NCBI GenBank assembly: GCA_964016885.1
Contig: OZ024741.1
Location: forward strand, 170,500,001-170,564,000
From: Eledone cirrhosa
Taxonomy: Eukaryota
Direction: 5' to 3'
Length of the DNA: 64,000 nucleotides
Positions 54,671 through 55,556 of the stretch are shown piece after piece; the stretch's first letter is position 1; each line of letters opens with the position of its first letter. A model generated the notes under the pieces. It did not search any database and was not told where the DNA came from. It saw only the letters and a list, made by a program, of their open reading frames with translations. Both the position numbers and the translations under genes were made by a program.

Positions 54671-55556
54671 ATCGCTATTTCAGAGCACCAATTCTAATAT
54701 ATATATATATATATATATATATATATATATATATATATATATATATATATATATATATATATATATATATATATATATATATATATATATATATTAGAAT
54801 TGGTGCTCTGAAATAGCGATATATATATGAATGTAAATATAGTGTATTTTGCAATACACTGGATGCTTAATTAAAAGCATTTCGAAGACCTTACGCTATT
54901 GTTTTAGAGAGTGACAGTCTCACTTACTTTAATTTTCAGCAAACAGGGGAGATAAAGCTGATAGAGCTCTGTTTCGCTCTTTTTGGTACTTATCAAAGCT
55001 AACTACTCCACCTGTTTGCTGAAAATGATGAATGTTTGATTTTATAGATTTCTAGTAATAATCAGGAACTAATTATACAGAGCGGTTGCCGGTCAAGGAG
55101 AAATTGAAAATTAGAATTGGTGTTCTGAAGTAGTGATATATATATCAATGTATATATAGTGTATTTTGCAATACACTGTATGTTTAATTAAAAGCATTTC
55201 GAAGACCTTACGCTATTGTTTATATATACATTCATATATATATCGCTATTTCAGAGCACCAATTCTAATTTTCTATTCCTGCTAGACCGGCATCCGCTCT
55301 ATATAATCAGTTCCTGATTATTACTAGAATTCTATAAGAATCAAACATTCATGATTTTCAGCAAACAGGCGGAGTAGTTAGCTTTGATAAGAATCAAGAT
55401 GTGCGAAACAGAGCTCTGTCAGCTTTATCTCTCGTTTGCTGAAAAGTAACGTAAGTGAGACTGTCACTACTCTAAAATAATAGCATAAGGTCTTCGAAAT
55501 GCTTTTAATTAAGCATACAGTGTATTGCAAAATACACAATATATACATTCATATAT
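54671..55556. mobile_element. Retrozyme-like 317-nt monomer family: about 1.35 units on minus, about 1.05 units on plus
   Basis: 54793 recurs at 55110; 55224-55556 is an inverted, circularly permuted copy. Confidence 0.8.
55380..55424 (+). ncRNA. Type I hammerhead, U3-A8 core variant (second family); mutated minus copy at 54956-55000
   Basis: AGCT-TTGATAA-G..C-GAA-ACAGAGCTCTGT-C-AGCT. Helix I is extended by TTTTCAGCAAAC/GTTTGCTGAAAA; helix II is weak. Confidence 0.65.

Follow-up and report, generated by a model that had tools for sequence, protein, structure and literature searches.

The mobilization of animal retrozyme-like units by PLEs has been proposed from the co-occurrence of the two types of element and from their sequence kinship (PMC7229834; bioRxiv 10.64898/2026.07.22.740005), and retrozyme circRNAs have been shown in coral, mussel and axolotl (PMC7229834). 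PLE insertions themselves are described as 5'-truncated and partially tandem, often with an inverted 5' copy, and with a tail of 30-40 bp at one end (PMC8557442; PMC3846280). In vitro, a purified PLE of the Poseidon clade nicks AT-rich DNA on both strands and extends each of them; two adjacent internal RT start sites define the PLE tail, unprocessed RNA is the main substrate, and ribozyme mutants still insert, so that cleavage is not needed in vitro (PMC11167929). The RNA used as template has been viewed as a circle (PMC4209133) versus an uncleaved multimer (PMC11167929). U3-A8 hammerheads have been published for the Cercyon PLEs of Schistosoma (about 1,300 hits; PMC4209133), and the Hydra-clade hammerheads given in File S2 of PMC8557442 are all of the C3-G8 type, with the hammerhead close to the 3' end.

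We analyzed a 64-kb stretch of DNA, hereafter called the window, whose GC content ranges from 24 to 53% (in 2-kb bins) and whose composition is animal-like. (TA)n and other microsatellites are abundant across it, and besides ORFs of decayed LINE type it contains numerous inverted repeats that are anchored at (TA)n. Decayed LINE-type retrotransposons with endonuclease and RT fragments are found at 59333-62125 and 24153-26112, and a diverged PLE-like RT fragment at 17242-18231; a search of a phage collection gave no match. At least 12 copies of a SINE-like repeat, about 190 nt long, are dispersed over the window, among them the following:

1679-1866, 18501-18997, 20573-20758, 31705-31853: SINE-like repeat of about 190 nt
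45883-46237, 47658-47726, 49040-49118, 50282-50381: further copies of this repeat

For the locus at 54793-55557, an initial annotation made from the sequence had described a structured monomer of 317 nt that is read more than once around, with a minus arm of about 1.35 units. This periodicity was borne out: at a lag of 317 nt, 54793-54904 is 93.75% identical to 55110-55221 over 112 nt, while the next-best lag reaches 49%, and the 429 nt of the arm correspond to 1.35 units (429/317). The second arm, said to start in a different register and to overrun its own start, does so as well; we place it at 55221-55557 instead of 55224-55556, with an overlap of 20 nt in which 19 of 20 positions match at lag 317. 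When the first base after the hammerhead cleavage site is counted as position 1 of the unit, the locus is composed as follows:

54793-55221, minus strand: minus arm, 429 nt or 1.35 units, covering unit positions 56-317 and then 1-167, with the long 3' end
55110-55221, minus strand: first pass of the direct repeat, 112 nt, 5'-truncated at the inversion junction
54793-54904, minus strand: second pass of the direct repeat (pseudo-LTR-like), with 7 differences from the first pass in 112 positions
54793-54821, minus strand: tail of 29 nt by which the long 3' end extends beyond the short one, not present where the plus arm ends
55221-55557, plus strand: plus arm, 337 nt or 1.06 units, covering unit positions 119-317 and then 1-138, with the short 3' end
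54697-54794: (AT)49 microsatellite, the inferred insertion target
55558-55570: short (AT)n run 3' of the plus arm

The two arms are joined head-to-head at 55221, with an overlap of 1 nt, and differ in 28 of 335 aligned columns (about 8%), or in 24 of 315 when a single period is compared with a single period. The unit has a GC content of 34% and is non-coding; its longest open stretches comprise 41 codons in the sense and 56 codons in the antisense direction, and there is no RT or GIY-YIG ORF within it.

The sequence of the locus shows that, upstream of the point where copying began, the template comprised 1.35 units or more and an intact cleavage junction. More than one unit must have lain upstream of this point, since both arms run seamlessly across the unit junction and the intact cleavage site; a single cleaved linear monomer is unfit for this role since it would need exact template jumps. 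The initial annotation had attributed the locus to reverse transcription of a circular or multimeric RNA and had drawn support for this from differing start points of the arms. Its first part stands insofar as a template of more than one unit is concerned, but the start points do not indicate a circle. The plus arm (unit position 119 to position 138 of the next unit) is nested within the minus arm (position 56 to position 167 of the next unit), and a single line of 429 nt accommodates every copy colinearly; consequently, the start points provide no independent evidence of circular permutation.

End fragments of the family had been placed at 4326-4498 and at about 37362-37497. Their positions were refined, and a further fragment was added:

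4329-4426, plus strand: 5'-truncated copy, unit positions 70-167, with the long 3' end followed by (TA)n
4312-4346: fold-back of 17 nt at the 5' junction of the 4329 copy
4471-4499, minus strand: tail-only copy that faces the 4329 copy tail-to-tail across (TA)n at 4425-4472
37348-37497, plus strand: 5'-truncated, more diverged copy, unit positions 17-167, with the long 3' end followed by (TA)n
54660-54698, plus strand: 3'-end fragment of 39 nt, from about unit position 129 to 167, in tail-to-tail orientation to the minus arm on the other side of (TA)n

Mapping of the copy ends on the unit, proposed at the outset, revealed scattered 5' ends within the window (unit positions 17, 56, 70, 119, about 129 and 140), but the 3' ends fall at two sites only, which are 29 nt apart: position 167 in five pieces (4426, 4471, 37497, 54698 and 54793) and position 138, approximately, in one (55557). 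None of the ends of the six family pieces coincides with the hammerhead cleavage site; a start of the 37348 copy at this site was considered and rejected, as the upstream bases do not match. In a search of the window, the middle 205 nt of the unit were confined to the two arms, the complete unit hence being present at one locus only. Nor does the 64-kb window contain a head-to-tail dimer of this family with two ribozymes; its longest run, of 1.35 units, has a single motif, and the other motif lies on the opposite strand.

Several signatures of PLE insertion are found at this locus. The 5'-truncated partial tandem forming a pseudo-LTR corresponds to the 112-nt direct repeat at lag 317, the inverted 5'-truncated copy is joined head-to-head at 55221, and the optional one-sided tail, for which about 30-40 bp are typical, is represented by 29 nt on the minus arm only. 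The AT-rich or (TA)n target is seen at all six 3' ends of the family, each of which adjoins (TA)n, and a target-site duplication is not readable within these arrays. We consider it likely that the 317-nt unit is a non-autonomous, retrozyme-like PLE derivative, non-coding and equipped with a type I hammerhead motif of the U3-A8 type. It is not classed as a retrozyme proper, because no head-to-tail array with two ribozymes is present here, and the lack of an ORF sets it apart from autonomous PLEs.

In the mechanism that we envisage, a tandem source locus would be transcribed into an RNA of more than one unit. If PLE biochemistry is a guide, the protein of an autonomous PLE would bind this RNA, nick both strands of the (TA)n array and prime reverse transcription at each nick. 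As the genomic footprint shows, copying began internally, about 138 or about 167 nt downstream of the cleavage site, leaving one arm with the 29-nt tail and the other without it. It then continued past the intact cleavage site and through one full unit, halting at variable points, and the two 5'-truncated products were joined head-to-head, both of which can be read from the arrangement of the arms. Most insertions abort early and leave 3'-end fragments only, as in four of the six pieces.

With respect to the template, we see about an even chance that it was an uncleaved multimeric transcript; such a read-through transcript accounts for everything as well as a circle does. Other routes appear unlikely. 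It is possible, albeit doubtful, that the ribozyme cuts multimers into 317-nt monomers, which are ligated into circles around which reverse transcription rolls; mobilization by a PLE is compatible with this scenario, in which only the template differs. The circle model has been proposed in print (PMC4209133; PMC7229834), and the seamless passage of the cleavage site and of the unit junction in both arms agrees with it. Unit size, GC content and a circular fold in which 54-58% of the unit is paired fit non-LTR retrozymes (PMC7229834), and one variant, in column 4, is common to both passes of the minus arm and absent from the plus arm. However, the two minus-arm passes differ from each other (7/112) as much as they do from an unlinked copy (5/98 and 8/98), without the excess identity expected of one molecule read twice, a signal that the age of the locus may have erased. 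Furthermore, no copy reaches two units, all copies are colinear with one line, and cleavage was dispensable for insertion in the one PLE tested in vitro (PMC11167929). A variant in column 22 is common to all three passes at the locus and absent from two unlinked copies; as single sites, columns 4 and 22 suggest that the arms derive from a single source subfamily, though possibly from different molecules.

The occurrence of the full unit at one locus only would also be expected if a single deletion had removed the ORF from an autonomous PLE and left its terminal-repeat region, so that the locus is a dead composite, not one of a family of mini-elements that spreads, and the fragments elsewhere stem from the autonomous parent. 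The other four pieces span unit positions 17-167 only, a region that a coding parent would share, and the hammerhead of Hydra-clade PLEs lies near the 3' end (File S2 of PMC8557442). Nevertheless, we regard this origin as rather improbable. The same junction is present in both arms, which differ in indels and in helix II with its loop (5 of 14 positions versus 19 of 301 elsewhere; p = 0.002, post hoc), a hint that different template variants were copied, and the unit is free of any coding remnant.

Since the plus arm duplicates a portion of the minus arm in inverted orientation and is nested in it, a rearrangement at the DNA level has to be weighed as well, in which fold-back at (TA)n or template switching during replication duplicated and inverted a piece of an older repeat, or in which the palindrome is an assembly artefact. 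Palindromes at (TA)n arrays are plentiful in the window, and a 17-nt fold-back lies next to the 4329 copy. We hold this explanation to be very improbable, as the divergence of the arms excludes a fold-back of reads or of the assembly, five pieces, situated at three separate places, terminate at an identical 3' nucleotide, and the plus arm agrees with the 37348 copy against the minus arm at column 4 and in an extra base at unit position 51. Moreover, the one-sided tail is seen again in unrelated families. In eight of 13 other palindromes, one arm abuts (TA)n and the other is separated from (TA)n by 57-101 nt; one is ambiguous, and four do not have this pattern. These 13 palindromes were chosen by eye from a self-comparison, and for the 317-nt family the script took an internal TA run, not the tail. 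The extra tail sequence was found again elsewhere in the window for three of six families tested. The arms of three other palindromes differ far less from each other (4/495, 1/261 and 0/63) than those of the 317-nt locus, which is therefore older than its neighbors.

The hammerhead core UUGAUAA (U3-A8) reported in the initial annotation is present in both arms, at 55384 (plus strand) and at 54996 (minus strand). The parts of the motif are located as follows:

55355-55445, plus strand: type I hammerhead domain of the plus arm
55355-55366 with 55434-55445, plus strand: helix I extension
55380-55383 with 55421-55424, plus strand: helix I
55384-55390, plus strand: U3-A8 core
55391-55404, plus strand: helix II and loop
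55405-55408, plus strand: GAAA
55408-55419, plus strand: palindromic helix III, with C17 at 55420 (GUC)
54932-55026, minus strand: type I hammerhead domain of the minus arm, with the core from 54996 and C17 at 54960

Core, GAAA, C17 and the 4-bp helix I are identical between the arms. In both of them, helix I is open-ended and leads into an internal loop and a long extension, with a G-C closing pair (10.1-11.1). The palindromic helix III and the GUC site are intact in the plus arm (4/4 pairs in helix III), but the minus arm reads AUC and has a C-A mismatch in helix III (3/4 pairs); likewise, the helix I extension has the 12 bp ascribed to it in the plus arm but is longer in the minus arm. Helix II, which carries a 6-nt loop, forms 3/4 pairs in each arm and is broken at different positions. 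Both genomic arms look partly decayed. Either the source possessed a full helix II of 4 bp that decayed separately in each arm, or this helix is weak and variable in the family, two possibilities between which two sequences cannot discriminate.

A strict hammerhead scan returned 12 matches in the window as compared with a total of one in 10 block-shuffled windows, an excess of about 100-fold; the plus arm is among the 12 matches, while the minus arm failed the filter. At the gathering score, Rfam gave no match in the 64 kb. At E values up to 5, 17 weak matches were obtained in 53800-55700, none of them a hammerhead; mostly microRNA-precursor models on palindromes and TA runs, they were rejected as chance matches. 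The remaining hammerhead-like motifs of the window are likewise unmatched by Rfam. The constrained hammerhead fold lies 8.7 (plus arm) and 13.3 (minus arm) kcal/mol above the minimum-energy fold.

One could hence view the motif as a non-functional look-alike or relic, and the element as a SINE-like sequence that spreads with the help of a PLE. The broken pair of helix II in each arm and that of helix III in the minus arm, the absence of a match in Rfam and the more stable competing fold all point in this direction, and in one test eight of nine Xenopus retrozyme dimers remained uncleaved (bioRxiv 10.64898/2026.07.22.740005). We nevertheless find a relic unlikely, given that the arms do not differ at any core position or in helix I, that the motif class exceeds the shuffle background so strongly, and that the 3-8 pair is preserved in U3-A8, which is found in three unrelated families in which all three helices close.

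The helix III duplex formed between two plus arms was computed at -20.1 kcal/mol, as compared with -1.8 kcal/mol for the hairpin. Dimer-cleaving variants of PLE hammerheads have reportedly been found by Lunse et al. The much higher stability of the intermolecular helix III fits the description of metazoan hammerhead motifs as cleaving as dimers (PMC4209133). Most likely, cleavage of multimers by the candidate ribozyme would be slow and would probably proceed in a dimer held together by the palindromic helix III.

The circular fold of the unit has a z score of -5.4 for the minus-arm unit and of -2.2 for the plus-arm unit, relative to 100 dinucleotide shuffles. As to the several small hairpins attributed to the unit, two were found:

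55497-55539, plus strand: two small hairpins of 6 bp and 8 bp in the repeated part of the unit, the second closed by a GCAA loop

Among five partial copies, these hairpins show one compensatory change (in the 37384 copy) and two wobble changes; covariation in these five copies is not significant (184 of 500 shuffles). Differences between the arms are not depleted in predicted pairs (14/183 versus 10/132; p = 1.0), by a crude measure that uses the higher pairing probability of the two arms. A splice-donor consensus (GTAAGT) lies about 30 nt past the cleavage site in both arms (55451-55456, plus strand; 54927, minus strand), and acceptor-like pyrimidine-CAG motifs occur further round the unit at 55249 and 55355. 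PLE terminal repeats can hold an intron; the motifs in the unit may be due to chance.

That U3-A8 recurs in this DNA, as the initial annotation had supposed, is borne out by three unrelated families in the window (55384/54996, 53979/50661 and 15861/15329). The third of these is as follows:

15861-15894, plus strand, and 15329-15296, minus strand: U3-A8 hammerheads with core UUGAAAA, a 4-bp helix II and a minimal palindromic helix III

This pair sits in a palindrome at 15220-15970 that has a one-sided tail of 61-63 nt. C3-G8 motifs are present too (42522/42989; 56393/57679/56267/44270; 41915). A head-to-tail repeat at 42505-43253, with a period of 467 and 3/282 differences, lies between (TA)n arrays, and each of its units carries a minimal C3-G8 hammerhead (42522 and 42989), so that it represents a partial tandem with two ribozymes; it is a better candidate for a textbook retrozyme or PLE derivative than the 317-nt family. 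Further C3-G8 hammerhead-like motifs were noted on the minus strand at 21005-20938, 37221-37154 and 41915-41840, the first two of which belong to one repeat family with a good helix II and a weak helix III. A partial literature search covering the main texts of hammerhead papers yielded no description of U3-A8 in a non-coding unit of retrozyme size.

The window also contains a protein-coding PLE:

50481-54082, plus strand: 5'-truncated protein-coding PLE of a different family, with an ORF of 604 aa at 51034-52848
50481-51052: inverted arm of this PLE, with a 77-nt tail; U3-A8 hammerheads at 53979 (plus strand) and 50661 (minus strand)

The hammerhead of this element has a long insert in helix II, and its inverted arms, being near-identical (4/495), mark it as young. 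It is one of the eight palindromes with a one-sided tail, which count in favor of the PLE reading of the 317-nt unit. The 604-aa ORF found no family in Pfam and was assigned from homologs, Atlas and motifs. It has RT and C-terminal GIY-YIG-type motifs (YRDD and YIG) as well as CxCX5C, CxxC and CxH; its nearest Atlas clusters hold RVT_1 and GIY-YIG members, and among the 120 homologs listed, 117 have CxCX5C and 104 have DKT. CxCX5C, CxxC and CxH are given for Hydra-clade PLEs, a clade inserting in (TA)n, in section 11 of PMC8557442, and we regard the element as Hydra-clade-like, a clade call that rests on motifs; the in vitro study cited above (PMC11167929), in contrast, concerns the Poseidon clade. 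The element exemplifies the type that could supply RT and endonuclease to a non-coding unit. Short palindromic relatives of it lie at 55875-55992 and 58226-58349. A further PLE family, with a minimal C3-G8 hammerhead and a 57-nt tail, is present at 56069-56591, 57143-57956, 44076-44908 and 38597-38859; the third of these copies retains GIY-YIG coding remnants at 44480-44908 (Pfam E 4.7e-5).

The statement that the 317-nt family has no obvious similarity to the hammerhead at 53974 (here 53979) beyond the core holds for 15 window segments compared on both strands, none of which scored above the shuffle background; three scores with z>3 were traced to artefacts of masked TA. Among these 15 segments, there is no sequence link from the 317-nt family to any coding PLE or to its terminal repeat.

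Two pairs of family tails face each other across pure (TA)n, at 4425-4472 and 54697-54794, an arrangement shown by no other family of the window. Seven of 58 (TA)n arrays have reverse-complementary flanks; five of these lie in degenerate microsatellite, and the other two are the facing tails of the 317-nt family. With five ends placed at random on 116 array sides, a crude null, such pairs would arise with p of about 0.001. Self-priming on a sense template, which would yield tail-to-tail repeats (PMC3846280), or insertion into or beside existing copies (PMC11167929; PMC6765202) could have produced them.

The same six to seven bases, TTCTAAT, precede (TA)n in three unrelated families (4426, 4546, 15158 and 58445), a common end that may reflect a shared preference in priming or cleavage. 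Upstream of the 4329 copy, an open stretch of 136 codons (3914-4321) begins right after a TA run and is joined to the copy via a 22-nt duplication and the 17-nt fold-back. It matched neither the 120 PLE homologs nor their profile, nor any Pfam family at E 0.001, and has an Atlas score of 0.81 (lead level only); none of 106 longer candidates proved homologous to it. Its candidacy as the N-terminus of a PLE was dropped.

The signatures of PLE insertion seen here on a non-coding hammerhead unit of 317 nt, namely two start sites, an inverted arm and a TA target, support the partnership of retrozyme-like units and PLEs, and the unit is small enough to serve conveniently as a substrate in vitro. Three families of this window would escape hammerhead surveys that look for CUGANGA only. 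A more far-reaching and rather doubtful reading holds that the protein of a Hydra-clade PLE directly copies self-cleaving 317-nt U3-A8 circles. Two primers at a single (TA)n break and two fixed internal starts on circular templates, with copying that rolls past the ligation junction, would then produce the asymmetric inverted insertion. The inward-facing tail pairs would represent a further step, by self-priming on a self-complementary (AU)n read-through end or by homing beside the element's own tail, and U3-A8 would make up a large share of the hammerheads of this genome. If true, the locus would be a genomic footprint tying retrozyme circles to target-primed reverse transcription by PLEs.

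The 317-nt element is no new kind of system; U3-A8 PLE hammerheads and the circle model have already been published (PMC4209133). Non-LTR retrozymes, as described in PMC7229834 and bioRxiv 10.64898/2026.07.22.740005, resemble it in a length of 150-450 nt, a GC content below 50%, the lack of coding capacity and a type I hammerhead; they also lack LTR features, form more-than-unit copies and occur in genomes with PLEs, their proposed mobilizer. In contrast to them, the element consists here of an inverted 1.35-mer and 1.06-mer, with no array of two or more ribozymes, and is known from DNA alone; it also differs by its U3-A8 core and by the PLE tail and inversion signatures visible at the locus. 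With the endonuclease-containing PLEs, those of the Hydra clade in the first place (PMC8557442; PMC3846280; PMC11167929), it shares 5' truncation, partial tandem and inverted 5' arm, as well as a tail of about 30 nt at one end, the (TA)n target and a hammerhead 100-200 nt upstream of the 3' ends. Unlike these, it carries no RT/GIY-YIG ORF, and its U3-A8 contrasts with the C3-G8 given in File S2 of PMC8557442. The minimal hammerheads of the Schistosoma mansoni Cercyon PLEs (PMC4209133) are similar in their U3-A8 covariation, type I topology, PLE context and opposite-strand motif pairs 100-700 bp apart. Their minimal motifs have a helix II of 7-8 bp and little helix III (PMC4209133), whereas the 317-nt motif has a short and weak helix II, a palindromic helix III of 4 bp and a helix I that is extended at length beyond an internal loop, and is nearer to the canonical metazoan type I geometry. 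By analogy with these systems, the 317-nt element would appear to work like a non-LTR retrozyme mobilized by PLE proteins.
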